Assembly: GCA_965217865.1 (NCBI GenBank)
Contig: CBDCJO010000002.1
Span: 5,664,001-5,728,000 of the forward strand
Length of the DNA: 64,000 nt
Source of the DNA: Candidatus Latescibacterota bacterium
GTDB taxonomy: Bacteria; Latescibacterota; UBA2968; SICM01
Direction: 5' to 3'
This document shows, in pieces, positions 44,332 through 64,000 of the stretch. Below the pieces are notes generated by a model. The model was not told the origin of the DNA and did not search any database. It saw only the letters and a list, made by a program, of their open reading frames with translations. Made by a program: the position numbers and the translations under genes. Position 1 is the stretch's first letter; the number at the start of each line of letters is the position of its first letter.

Positions 44332-44375
44332 AAGTGAGTTAATGTCAGCGCAAACAATCCCACAAGGAATGAGCC

Positions 44376-44423
44376 ATCTAACAACCACATGGTGATCGCT
44401 GTCGCTCACATGTAGTTTAAGCG
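44376..44423 (+). other. degenerate attC-like site
   Basis: R'' ATCTAAC; CATGGTGA/TCACATG pair with one extra base; imperfect R' GTTTAAGC. Confidence 0.5.
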
Positions 44424-44445
44424 TGTGAAGATTTTATCCCACATC

Positions 44446-44548
44446 GTTTAACACCGCAGTGCTATGGGCTTTCGCCCAACCTGCTTCCTTCTCAAGGCGC
44501 AGCTTCGGAGGGTAAGACGCAGGTTCGTGCACTGCGGAATCGTTAAGC
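44446..44548 (+). other. attC-like site
   Basis: GTTTAAC-a-CCGCAGTGC ... GCACTGCGG-aatc-GTTAAGC. Confidence 0.75.
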
Positions 44549-44578
44549 GAAACGGCAGGCTTGAGAGGATTGCAAGCG

Positions 44579-45655: not shown

Positions 45656-45854
45656 GCCTAAAGCCGCTCCACTTAACACGCGCACCTTACACACAAACGG
45701 TGCTGGATTACCCAACCACCCCACCTACGGCGAATGCCTTTATATCAGCTTCTTCGAAGCTTACTGGAGTAATGCTGAATTTATTCTACCCCAACTGGGA
45801 TATCCCGAGTTTTTTCCGCAGAATCACAAGTTAGAGAGCGCGGGGGGCCAAGCC

Positions 45855-46604
45855 GTGGAGTCACAATATCTTCTGGAAGCGATACTGAAGCGTGAGGGCG
45901 TGCCCACGTTCTCAGAGTATCCATTCAACCTGAACGCAGTCAGGAATCTACAAAGACTGCGATTCCATCCGGCAATGACCTACATTGTTGGCGAAAACGG
46001 GAGCGGGAAGTCCACCTTGCTCGAGGCTATCGCGGTTGCCTTGGGATTCAATCCTGAAGGAGGAACAAGGAACTTCGGGTTCTCGACGAGAAAATCCCAC
46101 TCCAAACTATGGAAGCACATTAGGCTTGCCAAGGGCATCAGGAAACCGGAGGACGGATTCTTTTTTCGAGCGGAAAGCTTCTACAACGTTGCGACGAACA
46201 TAGAGGAGTTGGACCGAGAGCCCGCGCCTGCACCACCAATCATAGAGTCGTACGGTGGCGTCTCTCTCCATGAGCAGTCGCATGGGGAGAGCTTCATGGC
46301 CTTGGCAATGAATCGATTCGGGGGAAAGGGTCTGTACATCCTGGACGAGCCAGAGGCGGCGTTGTCGCCGACCCGTCAAATGACGCTCCTCGCTCGAATG
46401 CACGAATTGATTCAAGACGATTCGCAATTCATCGTTGCGACCCACTCCCCAATTCTCATGGCCTATCCCAACGCAACCCTCTATCTACTTGAGGAAGGCG
46501 GCCTTCGAGAAGTGTCGTATACAGAAACCGAGCATTACGAGGTAACCAAGGACTTTCTCAACAATCATGAATCCATGTTGAGAATTCTGATGGACGGCGA
46601 GTAG
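45855..46604 (+). CDS. AAA/ABC-type ATPase (COG3910-like)
   Basis: GENGSGKSTLLEAIA, FFRAES, SLHEQSHGESF, ILDEPEAALSP, ATHSPIL. Confidence 0.92.
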   Translation: MESQYLLEAILKREGVPTFSEYPFNLNAVRNLQRLRFHPAMTYIVGENGSGKSTLLEAIAVALGFNPEGGTRNFGFSTRKSHSKLWKHIRLAKGIRKPEDGFFFRAESFYNVATNIEELDREPAPAPPIIESYGGVSLHEQSHGESFMALAMNRFGGKGLYILDEPEAALSPTRQMTLLARMHELIQDDSQFIVATHSPILMAYPNATLYLLEEGGLREVSYTETEHYEVTKDFLNNHESMLRILMDGE

Positions 46605-46674
46605 GTCGCACCCTCTACCCCCGTTCAAGAGGGCGCCGAAAAGGCGCCAGGAAATCATTTGAAATGGAGATACC

Positions 46675-47088
46675 ATGGCCATCCTGAAACATGACGATCT
46701 ACCTCTCAATGTGAGCAGGAGCTACGAGACTAGCGGAATAAAAGGCAGGAAGATTGTGACCCGGGAGGCAGGCTCAAAAACCTGCGAAGTCTGGGAACAA
46801 TTTCAAGATTCAGGCGGGCTAATAAACCCCCACTATCATGAGGTAGAGGAAATCATCACTTTACTGAAGGGAACTGTGGAAGTCATGATAGATGGGCAGA
46901 CCACGGAGGTCGAAGCTCCCGTCACTCTATTCATTCCTGAAAAGGTCGTCCATAGCATCAGGAACGTTGGGGACAAGACGACACATGTGTTAGCATTTTT
47001 TCCATGCCTCGATCCCAAAGTCATCTACGTGAAACCGTCGGCTGCCAATGAGTCGATCACTAATGAAAGGAAGCATAACCATGAATGA
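46675..47088 (+). CDS. cupin-domain protein
   Basis: PHYHEVEE, IP..VVHSIRN. Confidence 0.88.
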   Translation: MAILKHDDLPLNVSRSYETSGIKGRKIVTREAGSKTCEVWEQFQDSGGLINPHYHEVEEIITLLKGTVEVMIDGQTTEVEAPVTLFIPEKVVHSIRNVGDKTTHVLAFFPCLDPKVIYVKPSAANESITNERKHNHE

Positions 47089-47866
47089 AATACACACATT
47101 TTTCGAGGAGAACGGCTACTACCTGGCCAAAGGCGTCTTTTCGCCAGATGAGGTGAGCAAGCTTGAAATCGAATTCGATCGGGTTCTGCAACAACTCGGC
47201 GAACGCGACAACACCGACTCATCGAATAGTAACGGTGTCATCAAAAAACTCAATGTGCAGCAGTATTCGGGGCTGTGGATGGCGACCCTGCTTCACGAAA
47301 AGTTCCTCGACATTGTTGAACAACTCATCGGTCCCGACATCGTTCTCAACCATACCACGCTCTTTGAGAAGCGGGCGACAACCGCTCCAACGCCTTTTAA
47401 TATGCACCAGGACTGGAGTTATCTGACAACCCAGATGAACACCATGATCGGGGGAATGATCCATGTCGGGGAAGCCACGGAGGAAATGGGCTGCCTCAGA
47501 GTCTATCCCGGCTCGCACAAAAGTGGCCGGGTGGAGAGTTCTACCGCCCGTGATGCAGAGTTTCACAAACGATTCCCACTTGAAGGCGCCACGGCGATTG
47601 AAGCCGAGCCGGGTGACGTCACCTTCTTCGATTACTTCATCGTACATGGTTCGATGTCCAACCGCTCCGAAAAGCCAAGGAAGGTGGTGATTGCGCGGAT
47701 GTTTTCCGGCAGAGATCAAAAGGAGGACATCTACCAGTTCTGTGAAAATCTGGTGTTGCGCGGATGGAACTACCACACGACCTCCGCCACGGCCAGAAAA
47801 ACAGTTTGGAGACCTGCAAAGGAAACCGGAGAACCCGCTGCCACAGAGAACGCAAAGAAAAGCTGA
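47081..47866 (+). CDS. PhyH-family dioxygenase
   Basis: FFEENGY, MHQD, GCLRVYPGSH, PGDV.FF...VHGS..N.S..PR. Confidence 0.9.
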   Translation: MNEIHTFFEENGYYLAKGVFSPDEVSKLEIEFDRVLQQLGERDNTDSSNSNGVIKKLNVQQYSGLWMATLLHEKFLDIVEQLIGPDIVLNHTTLFEKRATTAPTPFNMHQDWSYLTTQMNTMIGGMIHVGEATEEMGCLRVYPGSHKSGRVESSTARDAEFHKRFPLEGATAIEAEPGDVTFFDYFIVHGSMSNRSEKPRKVVIARMFSGRDQKEDIYQFCENLVLRGWNYHTTSATARKTVWRPAKETGEPAATENAKKS

Positions 47867-48011
47867 CATCATTTTTTCGCGCAGGCCAGGCGAGCTCGAT
47901 CCCATTATGTCTTCCTAATGGATCCCCGCGGGACAGGTTGTCTGGCGGGAATTCTCTGAAACAACTACCTTTTTTTGAGAAGCAGAAAATCCATAAAACC
48001 AAACCAGAGGC

Positions 48012-48113
48012 GTAGGTGGCGCTTACACCCCCTGCGACGGCCCACCGATGGAGATCCTGATGGACCTTGATCACCACTTGCGTGAACGGGGGATTCGCGA
48101 CAAACTTGATTGA
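48012..48113 (+). pseudogene. internal fragment resembling sulfide:quinone oxidoreductase-like flavoproteins
   Basis: VGGAYTPCDGPPMEILMDLDHHLRERGIRDK recalls the C..P.E...LD..LR.RG.RDK motif. Confidence 0.4.
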
Positions 48114-48170
48114 AGAACGTATCTCACGTCGGATAACACCCAATTCGCCTTCCGCTGAATTCTCAGCTTA

Positions 48171-49698
48171 GCAGCCCGTTGAAGAACTACCTTTCAACGC
48201 ACATAAACGGAAAAGACGCCTGGAGTGCGGGTCAGATAAATCAAGGTAAGGAGATTGAGCAGGAGACGCTGATAAGAGGTTAAAAAGGTGACCGAGGGCA
48301 GCAAACGTGATTGTAGGACGAGCAGTAGACGCTGCAAGGCCTTGGCCAGGTCCTGGAGGGCCTTCGGAGTACCTACGCCCATCACTTTGCGCATGAGCAG
48401 AGCCAGGTTGCAGCCCCCGATGTGGATCAGCAAACGCTTGAGGATATTGCCGCGGTCTCTCAAGTGCAACCTGCGCATGCCACCGGTATCATATGTGTGA
48501 GCGATGGTTCTTTCCACCCGTTCTGCACGACTTCGGCGCAAGGCCTTGCCGCGATCTCCCTTGATCCGGCGTCGATTCGCATATACCGCGGCCTGCTCAT
48601 CTCGTCGGCCGTTCCACTTGCGGCGTCCCCGATCCGGTTCTGAAATGTAACTCCGGATGCCGCCTTGCTTCAGACTGGTCAATACATCGTTGCTATGATA
48701 TCCTTTGTCCGCAACCACCTCCCGTATACGCTGTCTGTGCAAACGTTTGGCAGCTTTTTCGTCCTTCGCGACCTGCTTGAGATTGAGCGGCGCCTCGAGC
48801 AGCGTCCAGGGCAACGACTCGGTATCTCCTTCATCTGCTCCCGACAACGCCACTGCCACAATGGCATTGGTGTCCAGATCCACCGCGTGCTCCACCTTGT
48901 GCGCCATGTGCGTGCGACCGTCCTTCATCTTAGCGATCTTGGCATCCGGGTCGTGCGGGTGCTCCCAGTCCTGGTTCGATCCCTTCTTCGGTCGCTTCTT
49001 ATCGATCTTGGACAAGTCCTCGCGGGTAGGCGTTTCAATGCCCGAGGCCTTGGCCAGATTCTCAAGGAATGCCTGGTAGCCTTCACCCGTGTCACGGCGT
49101 ACAATGCTGCGCATCGCGGCGTTGGCCTCCAGTGTCGTAGCATCCACGCCCAACGTCTTCCCCTTCACCAGACCCGCTTTGCACAAGACCCTCAGGATCC
49201 ACTTGAAAACCGCTTCGTGAACTTCCAAGGGAAGCCGATGCCGGATGCGAGACAGGCTGGAATGATCCGGGGTCTGTTCGTCAAGGGCATACCCCAAAAA
49301 CCGGCGCAACGTCAGCGAGTCAGATACACGCCATTCGATCCCACGTTCCGAATCAAGTCCCTCGAAATACCCAATCAAAAGCATCCGAAAATAAACCCCG
49401 GGCGGAATGCCCTTGCGACCCATATGAGGAGCGTAATACCGCTGGCAAAGCCCCTCGACGAACTCGTCGAAGCCGTTCGCCCCCAATACCTGATTCAGCT
49501 TCTCGTAGAACGGATGACCCGGAGATTTCACCAAAGTGTTCGATGCGATGAACAGGTTTTCCTGTCTCTGTCGTCCTCGTTTTCCCATTGCCATTTGCTC
49601 GTCCTCCCTTCTCAGTTTGAACCTGATATATCATAGGACCAAACCACAAGGAAAGACAACAGTCATCTTGGCATAAACGCACTTTTTCAACAGGCTGC
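48171..49698 (-). mobile_element. IS1182-like insertion sequence (transposase 48194-49594)
   Basis: TIRs GCAGCCCGTTGAAGAA / TTTTTCAACAGGCTGC, TA on both flanks; PDHSSLSRIR, VDATTLEANAA, ADKGYH, VER..AH. Confidence 0.9.
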
Positions 49699-49741
49699 TA
49701 GACTACCCTTCTTTCCCTTCTCGCGGTAATTCGACACGTCC

Positions 49742-50455
49742 ATGGAAATCCATAGAGTTGACATCTATTGGAGTAATTTCTTCGGTCTAAATTATGAGGA
49801 ATTTCTTACACCGGGTATTTATGTAGTTCCTCATGCACGGCTGGGAAATTTTCAAGGGGCTTGGGTTTATCGCCATAAACAAACAATTGTTCTCTCCGTG
49901 CCCCCGGTTTGGGTCGATCCTTTGCTAAAGAAGATTACAAAGATATGTATTGATAGAATTCACTCACTTCAAACAACAGAATATCTATTTGGAGATGGTA
50001 TTGAGCGGACCGTTGGACCTGCATATCAAGGGTATGCTGAATTGAAAGATTTCCAACCCCAACCTTCATCCTTGGTGCGTCTGTTGTCTGATGAAGATAA
50101 TTCTGGTCTGGAAGAATTGGCTGATTCCGGGGATCCTTCGGGTTGGGTTGATGGCGGGTTTGACAGTAAAAAAGATTATTGTTTTGGTTATTATTTAGAC
50201 GAGAAGATAGTTGCTGTCTCCGGATACGTTAAGTTTCCTGATGAGGCAGCGTTTCCTGGTATTTTCGTCCATCCATCTTACCGTGGTAAAGGATATGCCA
50301 AAGCAGTTTTGAGCGCGGCTTTTCAGCATGCATTTGATCAAGGGTTTTTCATCGCTTATCAGACTCTGCTTTCCCATATTAGTGCGGTAAGGGTAGCTGA
50401 AGCCTTTGGTTGTAGAGAATACGCACAAAATATTGTTGTTCGACTAAAAGAGTAA
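49742..50455 (+). CDS. GNAT acetyltransferase
   Basis: VHPSYRGKGYAK acetyl-CoA motif; AT-rich coding sequence. Confidence 0.85.
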   Translation: MEIHRVDIYWSNFFGLNYEEFLTPGIYVVPHARLGNFQGAWVYRHKQTIVLSVPPVWVDPLLKKITKICIDRIHSLQTTEYLFGDGIERTVGPAYQGYAELKDFQPQPSSLVRLLSDEDNSGLEELADSGDPSGWVDGGFDSKKDYCFGYYLDEKIVAVSGYVKFPDEAAFPGIFVHPSYRGKGYAKAVLSAAFQHAFDQGFFIAYQTLLSHISAVRVAEAFGCREYAQNIVVRLKE

Positions 50456-50539
50456 AAGCATTTTAGATCCAAGGACTGATGCCAGCAACAAAGCTACTTT
50501 TTACGGATCATTTTGAAGTGAAATCACGGAGGCAATAAA

Positions 50540-50947
50540 GTGGAGGATCAACTGAGTATGGTAAAACAGTTCCACCAAACGTTCAAATGTCATTTTGAAC
50601 AAAATCCCACTGGACAAATTCCGAAGGACGCGTCCGATGTTCGTTTGCAACTTCTGCAGGAAGAAATAGATGAATATCGGCTTGCCCTCGAGAAAAAGGA
50701 CATTGTTCTTGTTGCTGATGCACTTACCGATATGCTATATGTACTACTGGGCACATATTTTTCACACGGACTGCAAAATCTGGCTGTGGAATTGTTCAAT
50801 GAGGTCCATAGAAGCAATATGAGCAAATTAGATGAAAATGGTCGACCAGTATATAATGGGGTTGGAAAAGTTATCAAAGTTAATCAATTTTCGAAACCTG
50901 ATCTTAAGGCCATAATAGATAAATTCTCTGCCGACAAAAGGATTTGA
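50540..50947 (+). CDS. MazG-like/PRA-PH nucleoside triphosphate pyrophosphohydrolase
   Basis: LLQEEIDEY, VADALTDMLYV, EVHRSNMSK, GKVIK. Confidence 0.9.
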   Translation: MEDQLSMVKQFHQTFKCHFEQNPTGQIPKDASDVRLQLLQEEIDEYRLALEKKDIVLVADALTDMLYVLLGTYFSHGLQNLAVELFNEVHRSNMSKLDENGRPVYNGVGKVIKVNQFSKPDLKAIIDKFSADKRI

Positions 50948-50988
50948 CTCGCTGAGAATCGTTGACGTGATGGTGTAATAGCACTTCA

Positions 50989-52197
50989 TTGGTGACGGTC
51001 AAATCGTCCACAGATATTGTTGTGAGAGACAAAATGGAGATCGCAATAGACGGCGCACATTCCGTATTCAGCTTTATCGAGCGAACGGCTGAAAATGTGT
51101 CCAATGGATTCAGATGGAAGACCATCGATTACCATAACGAACCTCAGTATGACTACAACGTTTTCAACGGTTCGGGCGGAATCAGTTTCTTTCTGGCCGA
51201 GTACTATAGATTGACGAATTCAACGGCAGCTCTTGATCTTGCGATAGGTGCCAATCAGTGGTGTTCATCGGACGAACGCAAAGGATTCTCTCGTGGACTT
51301 CTCACCGGAAAAACCGGGGTCGCCATGGCCTGTTTGCATCTGTCGCAGATAGCTCAGGAGCCCGAATATCGAACCTATTGCGCTAAGAACGCTGAGATTC
51401 TGCTCAGAGAAGATCCAGGTCCAATGACCGACCTGATGGGAGGAGCCGCAGGGAATGGACTTTTTCTGTTACGACTATGGCAGGCCACCGAAGATGAGCG
51501 GTACCTCAGTGGCGCCTGTCACTGCGGAGAATGGTTAGAGAAGCAGATGGTACGTGATGAGAAAGGATGCTACTGCCTTACAAGCACGGACGGTAAGTGG
51601 GGTGACATCCCTACCAGCGGCGTCGCTCACGGGGTCTCCGGAGTGACTCACTTTCTTCTCCATCTACACGATGCGACGAAGGACAAAAGATGGGCATCAC
51701 TTGCCAGGGAAATACTGGACACACTGGTACGACACGCCATTCCTGACAAAGGTGGGCTTAACTGGGGCATGAAACTCGACGGGCCCATCACCCGATGCGC
51801 TTGGAGTCACGGCTCTCCAGGCATTGGTCTGGTGTTCTTGAAGGCGAATGAAGTACTGGAGGACCGATCGTATTATGAGATTGCGTTGAAGTGCGGAGAA
51901 ACCACGTATGCCTATGGAGATTTGAGGCGTAACGTAACTCAATGCATTGGCCTTTCTGGTTCTGGCGAGCTTTTCATTGAGCTATACCGCGCTGGCAATG
52001 AAGAGCTCTGGTTGAACCGTGCCCATGAGTTTGCCAAAATGGCCTATGGTTACAAAGAGGAACTTCCTGAGGGAGATGCGTGGCCAACAGACGAACCGGG
52101 TTTATACTCAGCGGATTTCATGTATGGTGCTGCCGGAGTTGGCCACTATTTTTTAAGATTGTGGAAGCCCCGAGAAATCCAGATGCCGCTCATGTGA
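50989..52197 (+). CDS. stand-alone LanC-like protein with altered Zn ligands (start uncertain)
   Basis: Repeated G..G loops (NGSGGI, GGAAG), GVAHGVSG, WSHGSPG, QCIGLSG, FMYGAAGV. Confidence 0.85.
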   Translation: MVTVKSSTDIVVRDKMEIAIDGAHSVFSFIERTAENVSNGFRWKTIDYHNEPQYDYNVFNGSGGISFFLAEYYRLTNSTAALDLAIGANQWCSSDERKGFSRGLLTGKTGVAMACLHLSQIAQEPEYRTYCAKNAEILLREDPGPMTDLMGGAAGNGLFLLRLWQATEDERYLSGACHCGEWLEKQMVRDEKGCYCLTSTDGKWGDIPTSGVAHGVSGVTHFLLHLHDATKDKRWASLAREILDTLVRHAIPDKGGLNWGMKLDGPITRCAWSHGSPGIGLVFLKANEVLEDRSYYEIALKCGETTYAYGDLRRNVTQCIGLSGSGELFIELYRAGNEELWLNRAHEFAKMAYGYKEELPEGDAWPTDEPGLYSADFMYGAAGVGHYFLRLWKPREIQMPLM

Positions 52198-52206
52198 AGC
52201 TTTTAC

Positions 52207-53019
52207 ATGGGGTGGCACAAAAGCGGTGCCCACCCTTGGCGCCCTTTTAATCTTTATACAATGTTAGATTCGGATCTTGTAGAAATTGAGATAAAGAAAA
52301 GGCCATACGTTCCTGTAATAATTAACGGGTCAGGCCCCTTCTCGTTCCTATTGGATACAGGATCCCTCGGTTCATATGTTTCACACGATCTCGCTGGACC
52401 ATTGGGACTTCAACCCGATGAACGGGATGTCATTAAGCTGGATATTTTTTGCATCGGATCAGCTGTCTTCAAGGATTTGGTGCTTGTTCTGAGAGACAAC
52501 ACCAAGGTTTCCGAGATTACTGGTACTCGTGTCGATGGGTTCATCGGGACCCGATTTCTTTCCGATCTGGTTTTATTCATCGACTACCCTGACAAAACCG
52601 TTCGGTTAACTGATGGTACTATAACCGACGAAAATGTAGAGACAATAAATATCCGGATGAGCCAAGACTATCCTCTGGTGCCAGTTATGGTCCACAATTC
52701 CGGCCCATATTGGTTTCTGTTGGATACAGGTGCCCATAAGTCTATTATCTCAAATGGTTTGGCTGACAAACTGAAGCTCCCGCGAGGAGAAAAGGGCCTC
52801 GCTCGGGGGGCAGTGGACTCGAAGGAAGTTCATCATTCAACGGTGAAATCAATCTCCATTGGCTCAGCTATCTGTGTGGACCTCCCTGTCGATTTGATGG
52901 ACTGCTCCCAGGTATCCGGATATGCTGGTACTGAAGTTCAGGGGTTAATAGGCCACAATTTTCTGAAAGAATTCTCTCTCACGATGAACTTCCAGAAAAA
53001 GATTTTGTCAATTTCTTGA
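52207..53019 (+). CDS. two-domain retropepsin-like aspartyl protease
   Basis: FLLDTGS...GFIG..FL and FLLDTGA...GLIG.NFL. Confidence 0.85.
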   Translation: MGWHKSGAHPWRPFNLYTMLDSDLVEIEIKKRPYVPVIINGSGPFSFLLDTGSLGSYVSHDLAGPLGLQPDERDVIKLDIFCIGSAVFKDLVLVLRDNTKVSEITGTRVDGFIGTRFLSDLVLFIDYPDKTVRLTDGTITDENVETINIRMSQDYPLVPVMVHNSGPYWFLLDTGAHKSIISNGLADKLKLPRGEKGLARGAVDSKEVHHSTVKSISIGSAICVDLPVDLMDCSQVSGYAGTEVQGLIGHNFLKEFSLTMNFQKKILSIS

Positions 53020-53054
53020 GTAACCCCACCCCGAATTGCGTGGAAGAGGAACCA

Positions 53055-53799
53055 ATGAAAAAGAATACCCAGCCGATTACAGGTTGCGGCGAAGGTGATA
53101 TCTTCGTCGTGGAGTCAAACTCGGGAAGTCTGTAGAGTTCGGGAATACCTGATCGTGACAGGAGAAAAGGAAGGCGTTGCCCTTACTGCTGCGTCCACAG
53201 GAATCGGGGGGCCGTCAACGGCCATTCTCCTGGAGGAATTAGCCAAGTTGGGAGCCCGCGTGTTTATCCGTGTGGGCAATAGCGGTGCTTTGGCTGACTC
53301 TGTATCGGTCGGGGAGTATGTCATCACAACAGGAACTGTGAGGGACGATGGAACTTCAAAGAGCTATGTCATACCGGAGTATCCCGCCGTTTCACATTTT
53401 GAGGTGGTCAACGCATTAATCCGATCAGCTCAAGAGGCTGAGGTTAAGTTTCACGTAGGCATTACCTGGTCTATCGATGCATTTTATGCCCGGAATAAGG
53501 TTCTTACACCCGAGGGCGAGATTAGTTCAATGTCTTATTCCGGCTATACACAACAATCGATGAATCCACTACTCGAAGATCTCAAACAGGCTGGCGTAAA
53601 AAACTGCGACATGGAGGCGAGCACCATACTCACCCTATCGAGTTTATTTGGGTTGAAAGCAGGGTGTATTTGTACAGTATCGGACCGTACCCCCTGGCCC
53701 GGTCCTTCTTCTGAATCTTTGGATTTAGATCGAAATATGGCAGGATGTATTGACATCGCAGTAAAGGCCATGTTAGAAGTGGCAAAAGCCGAACAATAA
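53055..53799 (+). pseudogene. uridine/nucleoside phosphorylase with N-terminal deletion and frameshift
   Basis: RBS + MKKNTQPITGCGEGDI, then a frame change; GDP.R motif missing; REY, STGIGGPS, RVG, CDME present. Confidence 0.8.
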
Positions 53800-53839
53800 A
53801 TTTGACACCTGATGCCCCTCCAAACTTCCCAACCTTCCC

Positions 53840-54253
53840 ATGGAGATAATCCCGAAAGCTGGGGCTTTACCCTACCGAAGGCTAGACTCAGGTGAGATTG
53901 GATTCTTAGTAATCTCACGACATGATTCAGATCACTGGATCTTGCCGATGGGTAAAATTGATCCTGGTGAGACTCCTGAAGAAACAGCTAAGCGGGAAGC
54001 CCAGGAGGAAGCAGGTGTTGAAGTTCAACCTAAAGATTCTATCGGGGTTCTTTCTTTTATCGACAAATCAGGATTAAAGCAGGACGTTGCCTTCTATATG
54101 GCGGAGTATATTGGAGATGCGGAGTGGCCTGAACAGCATCTGCGTCGTAGGCGCTGGATAGCATTAAACCAGGCTGAGAAGGTAATCGCCCCAGATTTCA
54201 TTACATTTGTCAGGACAGCTCGGAACCTGATTGAGCCAATGGCCAAAGAATAG
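53840..54253 (+). CDS. NUDIX hydrolase
   Basis: W.LP.GKIDPGETPEETAKREAQEEAG. Confidence 0.9.
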   Translation: MEIIPKAGALPYRRLDSGEIGFLVISRHDSDHWILPMGKIDPGETPEETAKREAQEEAGVEVQPKDSIGVLSFIDKSGLKQDVAFYMAEYIGDAEWPEQHLRRRRWIALNQAEKVIAPDFITFVRTARNLIEPMAKE

Positions 54254-54320
54254 CAATAGAAAACATCTCACTCTAACCCGGTTCGCGCACGCCTTACATT
54301 TTCTAACGGATACTACAACA

Positions 54321-55070
54321 TTGGATTACGACCGCACTGAGATACCCGCAACCTACGCAAGGGCAAGGAAGCTCCCCGAAGCCACACTAAGGGTTTGGTT
54401 GGACGCAATTTCGGAACGAATCGTTGGATCAATCAACTGCATCTTAGACGTTGGATGCGGGACAGGACGGTTTTCTGAGCCCCTTGCCAGAAATTTCGGG
54501 GCAAAGCTTATTGGGATAGACCCATCTTTCAGGATGCTGGACCGAGCTCCAGTTGCCGGGAACAGGGGAATTGCGAAATTTGTCAACGGAGATGCTCATT
54601 CTCTCCCGATCAAGGATGGATCATTTGACTTGATATTTCTGTCAATGGTGTACCACCACCTGGATAAACCTGCCAGAGCAATTCAGGAGTTTCAACGGGT
54701 GGTCCGGCCGGGTGGTAGCCTGGGTATTCGAAATTCAACCCTGGATCTCCTGGATACGGTGCCATATCTCAAGTATTTTCCGTCCGCACGTCAAGTCTGT
54801 GATAAAATGCTTCCCGGAACATCAGAGCTCATTGCAGAAATTGAAAGGACCGGATTCCTTCTGGTTGACCACACAGTAATTAATCAAGCATTCGCCGGAT
54901 CATTCAAGGAATACCGTGAAAGAATCGCTCAACGGGCTCAATCGGATTTGGCGAGTATACCGGATTCAGAGTTTAAGCAGGGGTTAGAAGAGATGGAAAG
55001 AGACGAGGACTCGCGGGTGCCCGGGCCAATCATTGAACCGGTAGACCTGTTCGTATTCAGCCGATCCTGA
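54321..55070 (+). CDS. class I SAM-dependent methyltransferase
   Basis: LDVGCGTGRF, GIDPS, GDA.SLP, VRPGG; TTG start inferred. Confidence 0.88.
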   Translation: MDYDRTEIPATYARARKLPEATLRVWLDAISERIVGSINCILDVGCGTGRFSEPLARNFGAKLIGIDPSFRMLDRAPVAGNRGIAKFVNGDAHSLPIKDGSFDLIFLSMVYHHLDKPARAIQEFQRVVRPGGSLGIRNSTLDLLDTVPYLKYFPSARQVCDKMLPGTSELIAEIERTGFLLVDHTVINQAFAGSFKEYRERIAQRAQSDLASIPDSEFKQGLEEMERDEDSRVPGPIIEPVDLFVFSRS

Positions 55071-55120
55071 CAGAAATCAGCACATCTGGTACCACCTCCA
55101 GGCATCCGAGACAACACGCC

Positions 55121-55577
55121 ATGAACGAACGGAATGCTGTAAGAGCTATAATTCTTACCTCGAATGGCCGGATTTTGCTCATGAAGATCCAAGAACCCAT
55201 CACCGGAAATCAGTTTTGGATCACCCCTGGAGGGGCCCCAGAGAAACACGAAACTGCTGAGGAAGGGTTGCGGCGTGAGCTCGTGGAGGAGACGGGACTT
55301 GAAGAGTTCCAGATCGGTCCACTTCTGTGGACTCGAGAACATCACTTCACTTGGAATGGCAAGGAATACTTCCAAAAGACAAACAGACCATTTTGAACCT
55401 CGGATGGACGAGCTGGCAGCTCCCGGAGAATGGTCTGCTTTCCGTGGCTTTCGGTGGTGGAACCTTGACGAAATAGAGATGTCAGATGAGACTTTCGCCC
55501 CCCGTCGTATCCACACGCTCCTTGGACAGCTTATAGAAAATGGACCACCGGAACATGCATCAGATGCTGGAATTTGA
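55121..55577 (+). pseudogene. NUDIX hydrolase, frameshifted near 55380
   Basis: WITPGG..E....LRRELVEETG in one frame; FEPRMD..RWW..E..FAP in another. Confidence 0.8.
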
Positions 55578-55697
55578 CAAACTCGTTCCGCGAGTTCGTG
55601 GGTGCCATGACTTATGTACGCAATATTGGTCAACATCGGTTGGGAGCAGATTGGCCCTGGTGGGCTTCCTCACAGATTTGAATAGGTAACCAAGGAA

Positions 55698-56855
55698 ATG
55701 GAAATCAATGAACAATATCTCCTTGAAACTCTAAGGAGGATGATCGGTATTGATTCTGTGGTACCGAACGAAGAGTGTCTCTCACAGTTCATTACTGATG
55801 AGCTTGAAAGGATGGGAGTCGAAGTAGAATGGGACGAGATTGCTCCCGGTAGACCTAATGTCTATGCCACTGCAGATCTGGGCCCATCTGAGAGATATCT
55901 TGTTTTCTCAGGTCACTCGGACACGGTCGGGGTGGCCTCCGGCTGGGAGACGGACCCCTTCACAATGACGGAGAAGGGCGACCGTCTTTACGGTTTAGGC
56001 ATCTATAACATGAAGGGAGGACTGGCCTGTTCCCTTGCGGCCTTTAAAGCATTGATCGAAGCCGAGGAGTGGCGCGGAAAGCTCGGTCGTCTGGGATTTG
56101 CCGCGACGGTGGACCAGGAGGGACACAGCATTGGAGCCAGGGCCCTATTGAAAACCCAGCACGGCAGATGTGACGCAATGCTGCACGCCGAGCATTTCTA
56201 CGGCGATTCCCAAGAGGACTACCTGCCTATCGCAGCAACAGGAAAGGTCCTATACAGACTGGTGGTGAAAGGCCGAGCGGCTCACGCCTTCAGACCCCAT
56301 CTCGGTGGGATAAATGCAGTAGAGGATGCTTCTCGAATCGTGTCTGCATTAAACGGGCTCCGACTTCGAGACCATCCGCTGTTCGGGAAGGGAACTGTTT
56401 GCGTGCTGAAAATCGAGGGAGGATACAAGGAATATTCCATTGTCGTTCCCGAGGAATGTGAGGTTGTAATCACCCGCTTAACCGTACCAGGAGAAACGAG
56501 AGAGGTTGCCGTAGAAGATATGCGAGAGCTCATTAGTTCTCTGCACCTTGACTCTGAAGTAGACATCGAGACTCCACCACCCAGCTACGATCCTTACTTT
56601 CTCGAAGAGGATGCAGGGATCTTAAAGCCATTCAGGAAGGCCTACCGGATGGAGGTTGGTAAGGAGCCTTACTTTGCCGGTCATCGAGGCATCGTAGATG
56701 CCAACGTTTTTGTCAGCGAAGGGAATATTCCCACTGTCGTGTTTGGGCCCAAGGGTGGAAATCATCACTGTCCCGGCGAATATGTGGAGAAATCGACCCT
56801 GGTTCCAGTTGCGAGGGTGTTCGCTAAAACTGCTTGTGAATTTCTCTGTCAGTAG
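55698..56855 (+). CDS. M20-family metallopeptidase/deacylase (ArgE/DapE-like)
   Basis: SGHSDTV, W.TDPF, LYGLG..NMKGG, VDQEG, GRAAHA, FGP.G..HH...EYV. Confidence 0.9.
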   Translation: MEINEQYLLETLRRMIGIDSVVPNEECLSQFITDELERMGVEVEWDEIAPGRPNVYATADLGPSERYLVFSGHSDTVGVASGWETDPFTMTEKGDRLYGLGIYNMKGGLACSLAAFKALIEAEEWRGKLGRLGFAATVDQEGHSIGARALLKTQHGRCDAMLHAEHFYGDSQEDYLPIAATGKVLYRLVVKGRAAHAFRPHLGGINAVEDASRIVSALNGLRLRDHPLFGKGTVCVLKIEGGYKEYSIVVPEECEVVITRLTVPGETREVAVEDMRELISSLHLDSEVDIETPPPSYDPYFLEEDAGILKPFRKAYRMEVGKEPYFAGHRGIVDANVFVSEGNIPTVVFGPKGGNHHCPGEYVEKSTLVPVARVFAKTACEFLCQ

Positions 56856-56919
56856 ATCCGTTTCTAATTGTCACTTGTGAAAAACCGGCGAAAATCAGTG
56901 GATTGTTTCGAAAGCCACG

Positions 56920-57197
56920 TCCTGAGCCCTTCGACAAGCTCAGGATAAACTCCGTCTAAGGAGGCACTAAATTCTGTTTGACACCTAGTGCCCGGCTTAG
57001 GCGCGCCCAGTCTCCACGGCGTTTGAGCGTCCTTCGACTGCGTCCCCCAAACACCGGGGGACTCCGCTCAGGATGTAGTCAAAAAGAACACTCAAAATCA
57101 GAACTATGACGAATACCCGCGATCAAGATAACATCCTGAGCCCTTCGACAAACTCAGGATAAACTCCGCGGAGCGCCAGCGTCGCCTAGTCGAAGGG
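56920..57197. repeat. cluster of REP-like palindromic elements
   Basis: 35-bp TCCTGAGCCCTTCGACAA(G/A)CTCAGGATAAACTCCG at 56920 and 57134, with a related inverted unit at ~57029-57074. Confidence 0.8.
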
Positions 57198-57316
57198 TGA
57201 CTTGCGATTTCGGACATTCATCTCAGGCCAGCGGTATTGTTAAATGTAAGACTAATTTTCATATACTAGGAAAACTCAATGACACAGAACTATTGACCAC
57301 AAAAAGGAGCTACCAA

Positions 57317-58030
57317 GTGAGTCTCGCGGGCCTTCCTGTTGGAGAACCTGTGGATGAAGGCAGTATGCAGGATGTCCCTAGGAAAGGGGAATATGGGGGA
57401 CAGTTTGTTTCTCTGTCGCCAATAAATCCCGATTTTGATGTTCAGGAGCTTTACAACTGCTCGCACGGAACCGAGGAGAAAGAGTTGGTTTGGACCTATA
57501 TGGGATATGGGCCATTCAAAAACGAGAATTCAATGTGCGTGTGGCTTCAGGAAAATGCAGAATCTTCGGATCCCATCTTCTTCACAGTTCATCAGAAGCC
57601 TTCAGGTCGGCGAGTGGGGATGGTCAGCTTTCTCAACCTCGCACCGGACGTGCGGAGACTTGAGATAGGTCATATCTGGTATGGGCCGGAAGTTCAAAGA
57701 ACGAACGTGAATACGGAAGCCGTTTACCTGATGCTCAATGAGGCATTCGATCGACTCCGATATCGTCGAGTAGAGTGGAAATGTGATTCATTAAATGAAC
57801 GATCCCGCTCTGCCGCGAATCGACTAGGGTTCAAGTTCGAAGGAATTTTCAGATATCATCTTATTGTCAAAGGACGGAATAGAGATACGGCTTGGTATTC
57901 AATGTTGAACTCTGAATGGCCCCCAATCAAAAAGAATCTGGAGACCTGGCTATACAATAATAGTGATGACAAAAGCGTTTCACTGCGCAAGCTGACCGCC
58001 GAGGCAAATCAAAAGACACCTGACTCATGA
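57317..58030 (+). CDS. RimJ/RimL-type GNAT acetyltransferase
   Basis: AGGAG + GTG; WTYMGYGPF, LEIGHIW, YRRVEWKCDSLN.RS, GFKFEG.FR, KGRNRDTAW. Confidence 0.92.
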   Translation: MSLAGLPVGEPVDEGSMQDVPRKGEYGGQFVSLSPINPDFDVQELYNCSHGTEEKELVWTYMGYGPFKNENSMCVWLQENAESSDPIFFTVHQKPSGRRVGMVSFLNLAPDVRRLEIGHIWYGPEVQRTNVNTEAVYLMLNEAFDRLRYRRVEWKCDSLNERSRSAANRLGFKFEGIFRYHLIVKGRNRDTAWYSMLNSEWPPIKKNLETWLYNNSDDKSVSLRKLTAEANQKTPDS

Positions 58031-58184
58031 TATTGCTGCCTGCGATCAAGATTTGATTCTCTTGTGGGGATGTTTTCGATGTTAACTGCAGAGTGTGTTT
58101 TTTTATCACGGTACACAAGGCACAACACCGAGTTCCCGCCTCCGAACCCAGGAGACGGCGTGTCCTCTTCACTGCAGGGTGAAT

Positions 58185-58310
58185 GTGAATAGGCCCCCCA
58201 CACAGCGAATGCTTGAGTTCGGCCTCTACGTTGAGGATGTCGCGCGGGCGGCTGACTTCTACGCCCGTGTCCTGGGGTTTCGAACCCTGAGTTTGAACGA
58301 ACGGATTGGC
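58185..58310 (+). pseudogene. VOC/glyoxalase N-terminal fragment truncated by IS remnant
   Basis: LEFGLYVEDVARAADFYARVLGF. Confidence 0.7.
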
Positions 58311-58687
58311 GTGCGAAACGTGGTATAAATCCGCTGAGCCGTTTTCAGCGATACGGACAGGTAGTGCCTGGATCGGTAAGAGGGCACTCCCAATACAAAC
58401 AGATAAAGTAAATGGGCAAGCTCGTCAAATGAAATTCGAAGCCTTTCAAGATAAGTGCCCGTGAAATCTTTAAACCGATATCCACACCGTGAACACCTGA
58501 ACCGATCGTCTTTTAATAAGGGCAACCTGCGCTGATAATCGCAGCTTGGACATCGCCTTTTTCCACCCCAACGGGCTGCACGAAAATAGGCCCTACTTAT
58601 CTTGCAGTCATTTGCTAACTTAAGTGGATTAATTACCAGCATATTATTAATATACGCTGGTGCCAATATCTACTCAATCACCTTATC
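58311..58687 (-). mobile_element. IS1595-family remnant (N-terminal Zn ribbon and one end only)
   Basis: RW....CPSC..RFRCSRC.YRF.DFTGT, LFVLGVP; end-like GATAAGGTGATTGAGTAG; catalytic domain missing. Confidence 0.75.
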
Positions 58688-58834
58688 TTTTAGCAATGCA
58701 CGGCCACTTCTGCAACCCAAAACGTTATCTGCAACCTGAACCCGCTTTATTAGGAGGATTCTGGTCTGGGGCTGAACTTCGAAGAACCGACAGAGGACGT
58801 AATTGTAGCTCTAGAGCAATCGATTCCTCTTGTC

Positions 58835-61013
58835 ATGGAACATGAGGGATACGCCTCTCTGTTGGCAGAACAGCCCGAACTGGCAGAGAAGGCCCCTTTA
58901 ACCCAACCGACAAAATCCTGTATCGGCCTATCAGTTGCCTTGATTAGAGACTCTGAATGTGTCTGGGCAAAGGGGTTCGGTTTGCGCAGTTCCGAAACTC
59001 GGGAGCCAGTCACGTCTGACACAGTGTTCTCATCTTGGTCATGTGTCAAGCCTGTCTCAGCCTATGCCGCTCTAAGACTGTATGAGCTTGGGGCCCTCGA
59101 TCTCGACCGCCCCATCTGCGAGCTAGTTTCCGATCCATTCATCCCAAATGAGTCGCGAGTGGAGAAGGTAACTGCTCGCATGGTGCTCTCTCACACTAGT
59201 GTCGTGTCCCGCCAATAAGTTCAAATAGTCGCTTAATCTTTTCGAGGATGGATTCTGCGGTGGCAGTCCACACAAAGGGTTTTGAATTTGAGTTGTAGTG
59301 ATCGGCGAATTTCTTGATGTTATTGACCAGATCTTTCACGCTACGAAAGGAACCCCGGCGGATTGCCTTTTGTGTAATGATGTTGAACCAGATCTCGACT
59401 TGGTTTAGCCAGGACGCGTAAGTGGGTGTATAGTGGACCTGATATCTTGGCCGGGCTGCAAGCCATTGTTTGGTTTTAGGGTGCTTGTGCGTGCCATAGT
59501 TGTCCAAGACCAGGTGAATATCGAGATCCTCCGGGACGTTTGCCTCGATGTGCTTTAGGAATTGAAGGAATTCCTGATGACGGTGTCTCGGTTTACATTG
59601 TGTTAACACTTTTCCCGAGGCGATCTCTAGAGCAGCAAACAGCGTCGTTGTCCCGTGTCTGATGTAGTTGTGAGTTACGCCTTCGACGTAACCCAAACCC
59701 AGTGGCAGAATCGGTTGCGTTCGATCTAATGCTTGGACCTGGCTTTTCTCGTCCACACAGAGCACCATAGCATTGTCTGGCGGGTTGAGGTAGAGCCCGA
59801 CAACGTCCCTGACCTTCTCTACAAAGAAGGGATCGTTTGAGAGTCTGAAGTGTTTCTGTCGATGAGGTTGAAGTCCGAAGGCTTTCCAGACTCGCTGAAC
59901 GGTGGACTTGGAGAGCCCAGTCTCAGCTCCGATGGACCGACAGGTCCAGTGAGTTGCATGCCTTGGCTTTGTCTTCAAGGTTTTGCCAATGAGCCTGGCA
60001 ATCTTCTGGTCGGAGATTGAACGTGGACCTCCAGGACGCATCTCGTCGTAAAGCCCCATCAGCCCTTGAGCACAATAACGATTACGCCATTTCCCAATCG
60101 TGGCATAGGACAGTCCCAGCTTCTGGCCTATCTGTAGATTCGTGAGTCCGATATCACTCATCAGTATGATCTTCGCACGGCGCACCAAAGAATGCGGTAA
60201 GATCCGCGAACCAGATATCGCCTTCAATTCACTTCGGACTTCATCACTAAGGTTCAATGGCTGCAATGGACGTCCCATTTTCATCGGTTCCTCCTTGGAT
60301 AAGGGTATAAGGAACCATAAGACGAATCCATTACTTTGTCAAGTTATTTCTGGGACATAACACTAGTGGACTCTCACATAATGAACCAGAGAGACAGTTT
60401 TTCCACGAGCCTGGAGAGAAGTTTCGATATTCCAATCAAGGATTTGCTTACCTTCAACTCGCAATGGAGCAGTTGACTGGCGTATCGTTTACACAGCACC
60501 TTCAGGAGAGTGTCCTCCAGCCTTTGGGCATGACCGGTAGCAGCCTCGACTGGTGCGATCAATACCAATCCAAGGTCAGCTGATCTACACAACGGTGATG
60601 GAACAGTCCACGACCCAGGCTACAGCTTCTACAAGAGCCATCACAATCAGGCATTTCACGGCTTGCTTACGACACCGTCAGCGTATGCTCAGTTTGTCTG
60701 TCAGATTCTGCAACCTTCGGTCACTCCAGGAGCGGCTGGTGCTTCCCAGATGCTGAGACCAATGACAGCAATCAGTGACACACTCTCCTGGGGACTTGGA
60801 TGGGGCATTGAGCACTCGATGGATGGCGACCTATTCTGGCACCACGGTGGATTTGGTCACAATCTGATTATGGCGTCAAAGGCTCACAAGATTGGCATAG
60901 TCATTTTCACAAACTGCGCCGGCGGACTCAGCTTTGAGAGGATCGTTGAAGCTGCACTTGGAGGCAGTCATCCGATCCTGCCTTGGCGAGGGCCTTGGTA
61001 TACGCCTTTCTGA
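58835..61013 (+). pseudogene. serine hydrolase (beta-lactamase class C family) split by IS630 and frameshifted (~60577)
   Basis: SCVK SxxK; removing the IS gives LSHTSGL..PGEKFRYSNQGF..LQPLGM; later WGLGW, HHGG. Confidence 0.88.
59199..60363 (-). mobile_element. IS630-family insertion sequence, transposase 59196-60284 apparently intact
   Basis: TIRs GTGTCGTGTCCCGCCAATAAGTT / AAGTTATTTCTGGGACATAACAC, TA duplication; VDEK, LDNY, PTYASWLNQVE. Confidence 0.95.
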
Positions 61014-61035
61014 TTCTTAGCATCGTTCAGGCAGC

Positions 61036-61215
61036 AGATAACACGAGCGCCCCCGGCTCCGGCTCCTTCGCGCCTTCGCCCAAACCACCATCCTCCTTCG
61101 CTGCTGCCCACCTACGCTGCCACCTTCGCTGACGCTTCGGTGGCCAAGGAAGCTATGGTGGGCAAGGCGCAGCTTTGGAGGACAAAAGGTGGTTCGCACA
61201 CGCCAGACGTTAAAT
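61036..61215 (+). other. attC-like site expanded by nested REP-like hairpins
   Basis: R'' (GC)AGATAAC is the exact complement of GTTATCTGC at 58724; R' GTTAAAT. Confidence 0.75.
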
Positions 61216-61239
61216 TCAAGCAGCGCAAGAGGAACACCT

Positions 61240-62040
61240 ATGATCTCAGGTGACTCTTCAGTTAGAGCAACCAAGGCTTTCTGTGTCGGACAGGCGAAGT
61301 CCGGAACAGTATCTCTGTGTGGTCTGCTAGCAACACATCACCGCGCTGCCCACGAACCCGAGCGAGAGCAAACCCTTGATATGATTCTGCGAGAATCGCG
61401 TGGTGAAGTTGACGCGAATGCCTTCCGGGCCTATCTCATAGAACGAGACCAGCGATTAAATCTTGACTATGATATCTCATGGGCTAATCAATTCATCCTC
61501 AGCTATCTGCTGGGGGTCTTTCCTAATGCCAAGTTCATCGTTCTCATTCGAGATGCATACACCTGGGTCCAATCAACCGTCGGGCACATGCTCAGCCGCG
61601 AGATCCCACTCGATGTGCGTTCGTTTCTAGATTGGTGGTTTAAACCCGACCGCTATCCTCACTCGGGCCACGATCGCGTACTAGAAAAGCACAACCTCTA
61701 TTCAACTGCGGCCTTCTTGAACGCTTGGAACCAACATGTGAATGTCTGTACCAAGGTTATCCCTATAGAGAGGCGTCTTATTCTGAGAACCCATGAATTG
61801 AATCGGTCTCATCGGTGCCTCGCCGAATTCCTACAGATTACTATAGATTCTCTTGCTGCTGGTGATGTACACCTTAACCGGAGTACCTGGTCGGGTAAGA
61901 TCGATTCTTTGGTGAAGCGATCCTACTTGAATGAGATGGTTGCAACGATATGTGGTGAGAATATGGCCCGATATTTCCCGGAAGTCACTCAAATGGAACA
62001 GGTCTACACATTGTGGGAGCCTGGCACCCCGAAAGGTTGA
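61240..62040 (+). CDS. sulfotransferase-like (P-loop) protein
   Basis: FCVGQAKSGTVSL 5'PSB-like, AHEP, FPNAKFIVLIRD...W..S 3'PB-like. Confidence 0.8.
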   Translation: MISGDSSVRATKAFCVGQAKSGTVSLCGLLATHHRAAHEPEREQTLDMILRESRGEVDANAFRAYLIERDQRLNLDYDISWANQFILSYLLGVFPNAKFIVLIRDAYTWVQSTVGHMLSREIPLDVRSFLDWWFKPDRYPHSGHDRVLEKHNLYSTAAFLNAWNQHVNVCTKVIPIERRLILRTHELNRSHRCLAEFLQITIDSLAAGDVHLNRSTWSGKIDSLVKRSYLNEMVATICGENMARYFPEVTQMEQVYTLWEPGTPKG

Positions 62041-62099
62041 AAAAACGCCGATCTAACAAGGTCGGCTTGAGTGAGGGATTAAAATAGAAAAATGATTGT

Positions 62100-62243
62100 C
62101 TATGTCGTGCGCTCTATCTCTGCCCCTTTATAGCTTCACTCTATTTGGGGCGCGCTGCCAGCATTTAACACGAAAGCGGCGCAAGATTACCCAACCACCT
62201 TGCCCCGAAAAGTCGCCCACAAAAACCCCATCACAAGTTAGGC
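62100..62243 (+). repeat. cassette trailer copy 1 + R'' ATTTAAC + leader copy ending in ATCACAAGTTAGGC
   Basis: Similar to 62697-62765 and 63750-63816 (trailer), and to 45692-45834 and 62865-62967 (leader). Confidence 0.75.
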
Positions 62244-62256
62244 GTGAAGGTATTCA

Positions 62257-62640
62257 ATGTCTGGACTATTCCGAAAAATTGATTGTCACAGTTTACCAGT
62301 AGCAAATCTCGATTCTGCTATTGAGTTCTATCAAGAAAAACTCGGACATGAGCTAATCTGGCGCAGTGGAGAAGCAGCCGGACTCCGTTTCCCACAATCG
62401 GACGCGGAGCTTGTTCTTCATACCGATGCTCGACCGATAGAAACAGATCTCTTTGTTGATTCAGTTACCGATGCTATTCAGCAATTCAAGACAGCTGGTG
62501 GGACAGTAGTCTCTGGTCCGTTTGACATTGCTATTGGCAAGTGTGCGGTTCTACGAGATCCGTGGGGAAATGATATCATTATCCTCGATACGTCTAAAGG
62601 ATTACTGCAGGTTGATCCACATAAGAACGTTATCAAATAG
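62257..62640 (+). CDS. VOC/glyoxalase family protein
   Basis: V.NLD.AI.FY..KLG, GG.VV.GPFDI..G.CAVLRDPWGN. Confidence 0.9.
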   Translation: MSGLFRKIDCHSLPVANLDSAIEFYQEKLGHELIWRSGEAAGLRFPQSDAELVLHTDARPIETDLFVDSVTDAIQQFKTAGGTVVSGPFDIAIGKCAVLRDPWGNDIIILDTSKGLLQVDPHKNVIK

Positions 62641-62758
62641 TAAATTTTTTAACCTGCTGCTGGTAATGACGGCGGGTTTGAGTTAGTCGGACGATTCTAT
62701 GGTGTGCGCTGTATTTCCGCCCTTTTAAGGCCTCCGCTTGATGGGGCGCGCCGCCATC

Positions 62759-62821
62759 GGTTAACATGTGGCTCCCGGCTCACTACGTTCGGCCAAAAAG
62801 GCCGTGACTGAATCGTTGACA
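62759..62821 (+). other. degenerate attC-like site
   Basis: GGTTAAC ... GCTCACTACGTTCG loop ... GAATC-GTTGACA (same GAATC-GTT ending as 44537-44544). Confidence 0.55.
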
Positions 62822-62990
62822 GATTGTAAAAGCGCAAATCTCTTTCCCTATGCACGGCCCTTTCCACGAAAGCGGAGCAAGAACCCAACCACTCCACACC
62901 GAAAAGTCGCGCACAAAAACCAAAACCGCCTCATCTACGACGGATGGCTGTATATCAAGGTTTAGGGTGCAGCATCAGGTGAAACTTTGC

Positions 62991-63737
62991 ATGAAACCTT
63001 TATTTGCTACTTCGATTGCTGACAGTCAAGGTGATCTGATCAATAAACTGGAAAAGCTACTTCCCCTTGTGTTGGATCGGTTTGAGGGCATCGCGGTCCT
63101 GGCTACAACGAATACCGATGATCGAATTTTGAAAGTCTTGCATGATGCCCAGGCGTTTATAGATCGGGCTGAGTCAGATATTGACTCTATCGGGTTGCAT
63201 CGGCGGCAATCAGTCAAATTGGCCATGGAGAATAGTAGAAATGGTCACATCCTATATGCAGACGCAGATCATATATTGCGTTGGGTAGAACAGGACCCAA
63301 GAGAGCTTGACCTGGTTTTAGCGAGGATAAAAGGTTCCGATTGTACCGTCGTTGGACGAGGTCCCAAATCCTTTGAGGCTCTTCCGAAGAGACTCAAGGA
63401 AACAGAGAAAATTGTAAATCATATTTTTTCTCTGATTACAGGACAAAGGTGGGACCTCATGATGGCTGTTCGCGGCCTTTCAAGAGTTGCAGCAGAATTG
63501 ATAGTAAACGAAAGCGAGGTCAACACAATTGGAAACGACGTTGACTGGCCATTATTATGTAAAAAGAACGGCCTTATTCTTGATTACATAGAAGCTGAAG
63601 GGCTTACGTACAAGACGGAATTTGACTACGCGAATGATCTCGACGACAGTCAAGATCAGATTCCCGAGGCATGGGCTTTGAGAGTGAAGCTTGCTTATCA
63701 GCACGTAGTTGCTATGGGACCATACATAGATAAATGA
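62991..63737 (+). CDS. hypothetical protein, possibly glycosyltransferase-A-like fold
   Basis: Clean ORF with ILYADAD DxD motif and VVGR. Confidence 0.6.
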   Translation: MKPLFATSIADSQGDLINKLEKLLPLVLDRFEGIAVLATTNTDDRILKVLHDAQAFIDRAESDIDSIGLHRRQSVKLAMENSRNGHILYADADHILRWVEQDPRELDLVLARIKGSDCTVVGRGPKSFEALPKRLKETEKIVNHIFSLITGQRWDLMMAVRGLSRVAAELIVNESEVNTIGNDVDWPLLCKKNGLILDYIEAEGLTYKTEFDYANDLDDSQDQIPEAWALRVKLAYQHVVAMGPYIDK

Positions 63738-63809
63738 AGAAACAAACCATTGTGTTGTGCACTTTATGTTGGCCCTGTTGAGGGCCGTGAAGGGGGCCGC
63801 GCCAACTTC

Positions 63810-63892
63810 AGGTAACACAGCACTCCCGAGCTTCTGCCCATACGGGCCTTCGCAGAACCCCAGTGGGGTCGGGAGTGCTGGAAACGTTATCT
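63810..63892 (+). other. well-preserved attC-like site
   Basis: (C)AGGTAAC-a-CAGCACTCCCGA ... TCGGGAGTGCTG-gaaac-GTTATCT(G); perfect 12-bp stem. Confidence 0.85.
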
Positions 63893-64000
63893 GACATGAG
63901 ATATGATAAACATTCTCGGATGTAGATGTTGCTGATCGCGGCTAATCGAACTTACAGTCCGCTTTCTATCAGAAAAAGTAACCAGATGACAAACCAGTGG

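Follow-up and report, generated by a model that had tools for sequence, protein, structure and literature searches.

The origin of new integron cassettes is an open question according to the available parts of PMC5371416 and PMC8618304. The closest precedent for the structure described here is the qacE101 pseudo-cassette, in which the 101-bp 5′ untranslated region (UTR) of qacE is fused to aac(6')-Ib-cr, aacA29a/b and aadA16, according to the accessible portion of PMC8876359. In this study, a 64,000-nt stretch from a Candidatus Latescibacterota bacterium (assembly GCA_965217865.1, contig CBDCJO010000002.1, positions 5,664,001 to 5,728,000; hereafter the window) was analyzed, in which integron-like cassettes carry a conserved non-coding leader and trailer, together called the shell, around unrelated genes. 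An earlier note on this DNA had proposed that genes are loaded into a pre-existing empty cassette of this kind. Positions are those of the window unless a genome (G), contig (C) or locus (L) is given.

The qacE101 element resembles the present case in that one non-coding cassette leader is reused before unrelated genes. However, as far as that portion of PMC8876359 goes, it is a 5′ piece only, described as a promoter supply, with no conserved trailer or covariation of the ends described; moreover, fusion of the qacE101 type at an internal GTT fits the long-leader subset here but not 30 of the 35 leaders. The gene-less promoter cassettes of Vibrionaceae and Treponema likewise bring non-coding cassette DNA into arrays, and an empty unit was found here in two genomes, but the non-coding parts described here frame genes and the empty unit looks deletion-derived. 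Cassettes fused by partial attC loss, as treated in the same accessible portion of PMC8876359, account for the three collapsed attC sites of the window, but leave the matched ends around unrelated cargo unexplained. Compared with sedentary chromosomal integrons, the recombinase lacks the I2 insert, the cassettes of one family have a leader of about 70–200 nt and a trailer of 75–100 nt in common around unrelated genes, and pairing of the cassette ends reaches to about position 17, compared with matches at only 1–4 of 7 bases at positions 12–18 in nine class 1/2 cassettes, a small control with three uncertain boundaries. A literature search, whose coverage largely left out subscription papers, found no account of paired leader–trailer shells, nor of integron attC in Latescibacter.

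Leader and trailer were found to form a genuine frame of paired ends that encloses unrelated genes. Within one cassette, the 5′ terminus is complementary, in reverse, to the 3′ terminus over the R box and over a 7-bp stretch (box 1) lying four bases further in, a pairing that the earlier note missed. Of 113 non-redundant trailers collected from 111 sequences, the 41 that had an R'' end and a leader no more than 1.4 kb away were analyzed as pairs, and the remaining trailers were left out. R positions 5–7 matched at 2.41 of 3 bases (1.13 with permuted partners) and box 1 at 5.46 of 7 (4.55 with permuted partners), both above all 5000 permutations. Among 32 representatives of differing cargo, the four column pairs with the highest mutual information were all leader–trailer Watson–Crick pairs, the best in 31/32 and with three types of pair. 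A further box (box 2), about 50 nt inside, paired in 26/32; shared descent means fewer independent changes than these counts. In addition, leader and trailer joined together folded better as the bottom strand in 34/41 pairs, at −29.1 kcal/mol compared with −23.7 for permuted partners, whereas the trailer alone folded better on the top strand.

Pairing of the ends is not confined to the family. It was also present in 24 non-family cassettes, where box 1 matched at 4.88 of 7 bases against 2.57 after permutation, and position 11 held A opposite C, a bottom-strand G–T wobble, in 15 of the 20 that were R-matched. A scan for matched ends returned 87 cassettes and none in reversed DNA. A shorter end pairing is thus present in ordinary cassettes of the lineage, and what is special to the shell family is the long shared sequence. 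A leader that is a full reverse copy of the trailer was rejected: the similarity was confined to box 2 and the terminal 18 nt, with 1 match at E < 1 against 0.35 in shuffles. The leader alone gave no consensus fold. At least two further shell families with paired 5′/3′ motifs of their own were seen by eye (L092, L138, L093; G000:C2 1061546, 4229049, 5010335, 4233948), and one of these has the same first half of the trailer.

The frame carries unrelated genes, as had been claimed. The 40 cargo open reading frames (ORFs) of the 41 pairs fell into 29 families by BLASTP, and the 27 proteins scanned included NUDIX, HAD, nitrilase, methyltransferase, EamA, TIM-barrel and toxin–antitoxin genes; one shell (L030) held a reverse-oriented ORF. 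Well-matched ends were found in 24/41 cassettes, which covered 12 end types and 18 cargo families, with up to four families per type.

The alignments were beyond chance when leader and trailer models were searched with nhmmer, the check that the earlier note had proposed: multiple copies were returned, and neither model matched reversed loci. In the 6.4-Mb window genome, iterated nhmmer gave eight copies of the trailer, all with E values of 8e-10 or lower, the next match being at E 3.2; the leader model gave six copies there at E ≤ 0.001, a number that rose to 11 with a limit of E ≤ 0.05. All eight trailers were on the coding strand, 3′ of a stop codon, and ended in TAACA, and six continued into an intact attC-like hairpin. 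In the wider collection, 93/113 trailers ended at R'' (TAAC or CAAC), a result partly built into the model. For cassettes delimited by attC hairpins alone (n = 30), four had both ends of the shell, 24 neither and two only one (Fisher p = 0.0009).

In the class to which the host probably belongs, the trailer covariance model matched 42 and the leader model 49 of the 132 genomes, with both in 36. At least 43 of 108 trailers had a leader 60–1500 bp upstream on the same strand, with none on the opposite strand, and at least 43 of 140 leaders had a partner trailer; these pairing counts carry the caveat that the leader model was trained on loci taken around trailers, and all class-wide counts are lower bounds with 37 candidates scored per genome. 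The trailer covariance model had no match in 36 genomes of ten further families of the phylum, and no viral contig carried the repeat. A strict pattern returned six loci in GTDB (four titled Ca. Latescibacterota) and 21 in metagenomes, of which 6/21 were kept and 15 dropped as chance, judged by eye. A single trailer searched by BLAST against 41 relative genomes gave few matches, and the covariance model was needed. One metagenome-assembled genome, putatively assigned to Bacteroidetes by its title, had four trailer matches. A second phylum, suggested by a record titled Gemmatimonadota, was rejected, the match coordinates being identical to those of class member G047. Copies independent of cassettes and in either orientation, as expected of repetitive extragenic palindromes (REP) or miniature inverted-repeat transposable elements (MITE), were not seen; polarity was strict and no free repeats were found. 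Repeats independent of attC or genes had been the refuting case named in the earlier note.

Within the window, the quoted motifs were all recovered, and the cassette parts traced below from 44446 onward lie on the forward (+) strand. The leaders at 62169 and 62865 and the diverged copy at about 45690 are present; two of them have a CTACG...TATATCA block in common (45725 and 62935), and the leader-end motif ATCACAAGTTAG stands before the gene at 45823 and 62230. Three trailers run into R'', with TAAC ends at 62169, 62765 and 63816. The trailer adjoins R'', and intact copies elsewhere in the window genome place the start of the leader at the preceding site's R' box; the two are therefore opposite ends of a single cassette. 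The claimed order attC–leader–gene–trailer–attC holds as such a frame, but no window leader follows an intact attC: all three are placed after attC sites with the inner part deleted. Of the gene labels, ATPase, sulfotransferase and VOC were upheld, and "GT-like" had no Pfam or NCBIfam match.

The first leader is long (45687–45834) and consists of a diverged core, a middle block (45725–45750) and a distal module that reaches a GTTAG point at 45830. It follows a collapsed attC (45671–45692) made of R'', a left-arm stub and an R' remnant, with the inner hairpin deleted, and precedes an AAA_21 ATPase gene (45855–46604). Neither a trailer nor a matched 3′ end was found for this gene, which thus departs from the claim of a leader and trailer around each gene. 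The sulfotransferase cassette (61209–62169, gene 61240–62040) opens at the R' (61209) of an attC-like site (61036–61215) and ends in trailer copy 1 with its R'' (62097–62169); its ends pair at 14/14 positions of R box and box 1, and its leader is reduced to about the first 20 nt, the core being mostly missing. The next leader (62165–62241) is fused to the preceding R'', with the attC inside deleted, and stops with the final bases of the distal module. It is followed by a VOC/glyoxalase gene (62257–62640) and trailer copy 2 with its R'' (62694–62765), and the box 1 match is 7/7. The attC-like site at 62759–62864 has lost most of R' and the terminal part of the right arm compared with its intact relatives (C2:4229k, C2:3792k). 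A leader with core and middle block (62861–62960), a cargo ORF without Pfam or NCBIfam match (62991–63737) and trailer copy 3 with its R'' (63747–63816) follow; leader and trailer are of differing, mismatched end types, and this 62.9k–63.8k unit is probably a chimeric cassette. An intact attC-like hairpin (63810–63892) stands behind it.

An assembly artefact was considered for the collapsed sites and rejected, as short-read contigs cross the 62.17k and 62.86k junctions without differences. Positions 60900–64000 were matched by contigs in four runs from three studies, and the 45.68k junction was bridged in 3/4 runs; some of these runs may be the source sample itself. At 45659, one contig of run X1 departs from the window sequence and runs into an attC-like right arm, which suggests a strain with a different junction. 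Further upstream, the hairpin scan located an intact attC-like hairpin (44446–44548) before a non-family phosphotransferase cassette (44542–45677) with an APH-family gene (Pfam PF01636), whose ends pair at 10/14 R and box positions. A decayed, classical-looking attC lies at 44378–44430, about 30 nt before that local-type site; it gives the impression of a repackaged foreign cassette, and L035 is a clearer case.

The other features of the region are transposase-like ORFs, judged from sequence, at 48194–49594, 58259–58666 and 59196–60284, the last of which splits a beta-lactamase-like ORF, and a REP-like 38-nt repeat pair between genes (56917–56954 and 57131–57168). Rfam gave five matches in 44000–64000, all far under their gathering scores, and no known RNA family was identified there. 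A 54-nt hairpin repeat that is unrelated to the cassette sites occurs in seven copies (G000:C2 62311, 240272, 376830, 378324, 3268208, 3313130 and 3344178).

A pristine empty cassette from which the others could have arisen was not found, and the sole gene-less shell reads as a deletion product. In the genome-wide lists, the shortest leader-to-trailer spans were 375 bp, with an apparent gene fragment inside, and 598 bp. Among 20 loci around unpaired leaders, a 140-bp gene-less unit with matched ends was found in G069, with folding z-scores of −3.4 for the bottom and −1.2 for the top strand. The same unit recurs in G020, where it is interrupted by a 2-kb insertion that has short inverted ends and is flanked by a target duplication (L156, G020:C1:4121585-4123578). 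The unit has no trailer box 2, and comparison with G071, which holds a gene-bearing version of its leader, revealed a 5-nt microhomology at the junction; it therefore looks like a deletion product and not a progenitor. Minimal junctions recur elsewhere, with R'' and R' only 5–6 nt apart after the trailer, at L089, L094, L116, L078, L117 and L065. The attC-like sites at G000:C2 201880 and 1192150 apparently share a loss of two bases, identical in both, at the crossover point of R'.

An internal GTTAG entry site, also claimed by the earlier note, could be traced in long leaders only and is missing from most leaders. Long leaders run from core to middle block to distal module, with 26 matches and none in the null. 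The distal module was also found in other shell families, and homology stops at a GTT-like point; the module seed ended at this point and the downstream differences were judged by inspection. Position 11 counted from the GTT is occupied by A in 9/13 distinct cases, which is also the base found there at the 5′ ends of cassettes (p = 0.007, post hoc). At the inner end, the 7-mer of the GTT point was matched at the cargo stop codon in 2/10 cases with a clear ORF, compared with 0/90 mismatched comparisons. Moreover, at L093 a gene with R'' and an attC hairpin is nested within an end-matched outer cassette of a related shell family. The entry site was not attI-like as had been supposed, since the module has no significant similarity to the attI-like sites of the genome.

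The platform appears to be built like an integron, yet it fails membership by IntI. No IntI above the TIGR02249 cut-off was found in the window genome and five relatives (0/6). In G057 and G028, a tyrosine recombinase heads the array on the cassette strand, and the G057 protein aligned with IntI4 (2A3V) as two segments separated by 27 residues, compared with 69 in the I2 region of IntI4. It thus has no I2 insertion, the element whose role in integron integrases is stated in the available part of PMC7790495. The integrase of this lineage is not an IntI, which the earlier note missed, and its position at array heads suggests that this recombinase performs the recombination. A putative attI-like site with GTT before the first cassette is conserved after the integrase in L001, L144 and L145. 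Ten near-identical attI-like copies are scattered on G000:C2 (e.g., 1657019-, 1789439-, 1982754+, 3496375+, 4235055- and 4999631+); only one lies beside a near-full, frameshifted integrase and one beside a fragment of its 3′ part, which suggests that the platform multiplied and lost its enzyme. The attC-like hairpins with R''/R' lie between single genes, at 96 sites compared with 20 in reversed DNA; their arms are atypical by eye, and Rfam gave no match over threshold. The cassettes are scattered across the window genome, and, with regard to bottom-strand-specific recombination, what was observed is a folding bias toward that strand.

The best reading overall is that of a refillable shell, with several readings open for the loading route. 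The preferred one, to which we give a probability of about 45%, is that the shell family is refilled by insertion at the GTT of long leaders and then trimmed. The integrase would insert another cassette at the GTT, at the far end of the long leader within an existing shell, and deletion would later shorten both the leader and the inner attC; nesting plus trimming might thereby produce the many short-leader members. In the excised single-stranded circle, the bottom strand is predicted to pair across R, box 1 and box 2. Because of the covariation and the folding, this pairing is predicted to extend the attC stem and so to favor re-integration.

Several results weigh against this reading. A pristine empty shell was absent among the candidates scored in the 132 class genomes, a matched inner end was missing in 8/10 module cases, and the one clean example of nesting belongs to another shell family. 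GTTA follows the leader core in 5/35 cassettes, below the 9.7 in shuffles. Two further candidates were rejected: a copy of attI in the distal module (attI profile on 14 modules, score sum 7.9 against a null maximum of 11.6) and a decayed classical attC before trailers as a rule (left-arm remnant in 1/92, no more than in shuffles). The family's integrase in the window genome is split by a frameshift, with one fragment elsewhere. Furthermore, cargo boundaries vary widely within leader and trailer, 97/140 leaders and 65/108 trailers had no partner within 1.5 kb, and leader and trailer similarities outside the end boxes were uncorrelated (Mantel rho 0.08, p = 0.25), co-descent outside these boxes being dropped as not significant.

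Some of these observations would suit a real shell whose cargo is swapped through recombination, either illegitimate or guided by microhomology, and through deletions joining neighboring cassettes, with no defined entry site and with pairing kept by selection for mobility. The variable cargo junctions, the three collapsed attC sites in the window with similar ones elsewhere, the empty unit that apparently arose by a 5-nt microhomology deletion and the mismatched ends of the 62.9k–63.8k cassette all agree with it. However, cassette fusion predicts mismatched ends, whereas well-matched ends predominate and span the 18 cargo families, and the stop of homology at GTT with its two matched inner ends is left unexplained. 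We therefore consider this exchange a serious but rather unlikely account. At the other extreme, independent REP/MITE-like repeats, or decayed attC pieces that lie near cassettes by chance, are largely refuted and very improbable. Leader-core-like C-rich blocks do occur in attC loops and other cassette ends, but the strict polarity without opposite-strand cases, the trailer ends at R'' (with the reservation given above) and ends that covary across about 1 kb of unrelated cargo do not fit such repeats.

The shell might also serve expression, as a cassette promoter or 5′ UTR with a 3′ RNA hairpin, its carriers being favored as they are expressed far from the platform promoter. Cassette-borne promoters are known, according to the available parts of PMC8876359 and 10.1101/2023.11.21.568050, the trailer alone prefers the top-strand fold, and the cassettes are scattered. 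But a sigma-70 consensus scan of the leaders at 62.2k and 62.9k found no sigma-70-like site in these two, no terminator was found in trailers, and a structured-RNA trailer was rejected, with two-sided changes in 1/13 pairs among 19 sequences and hairpin covariation no better than in shuffles. The covariation between leader and trailer and the bottom-strand bias would not be explained either, and this reading is improbable. Much the same low probability is given to a cassette-making machine that adds both ends from a fixed RNA or DNA template, which would make the shell a scar of manufacture. Matched ends around many unrelated cargos, and the further shell families seen by eye, would be expected from it, but shell copies are only about 60% identical (median), 55 of the 87 end-matched cassettes have neither end in common with others, and no template locus or enzyme was seen, reverse transcriptase not having been searched for.

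A bolder extension of the refilling model, which we hold to be rather doubtful, is that shells are pre-built, self-pairing cassette vectors with a landing site of their own, by which an I2-less integrase repackages foreign cassettes, and possibly non-cassette genes, into mobilizable units. If true, a working route of cassette genesis would be visible in genomes. Cassette arrays here stand beside a recombinase without the domain held to define integron integrases, and IntI-based surveys would likely miss them. With a frame around 29 cargo families, ends that covary, a putative point of entry, one case of nesting and an empty derivative, the origin of cassettes becomes a matter of specific recombination assays.

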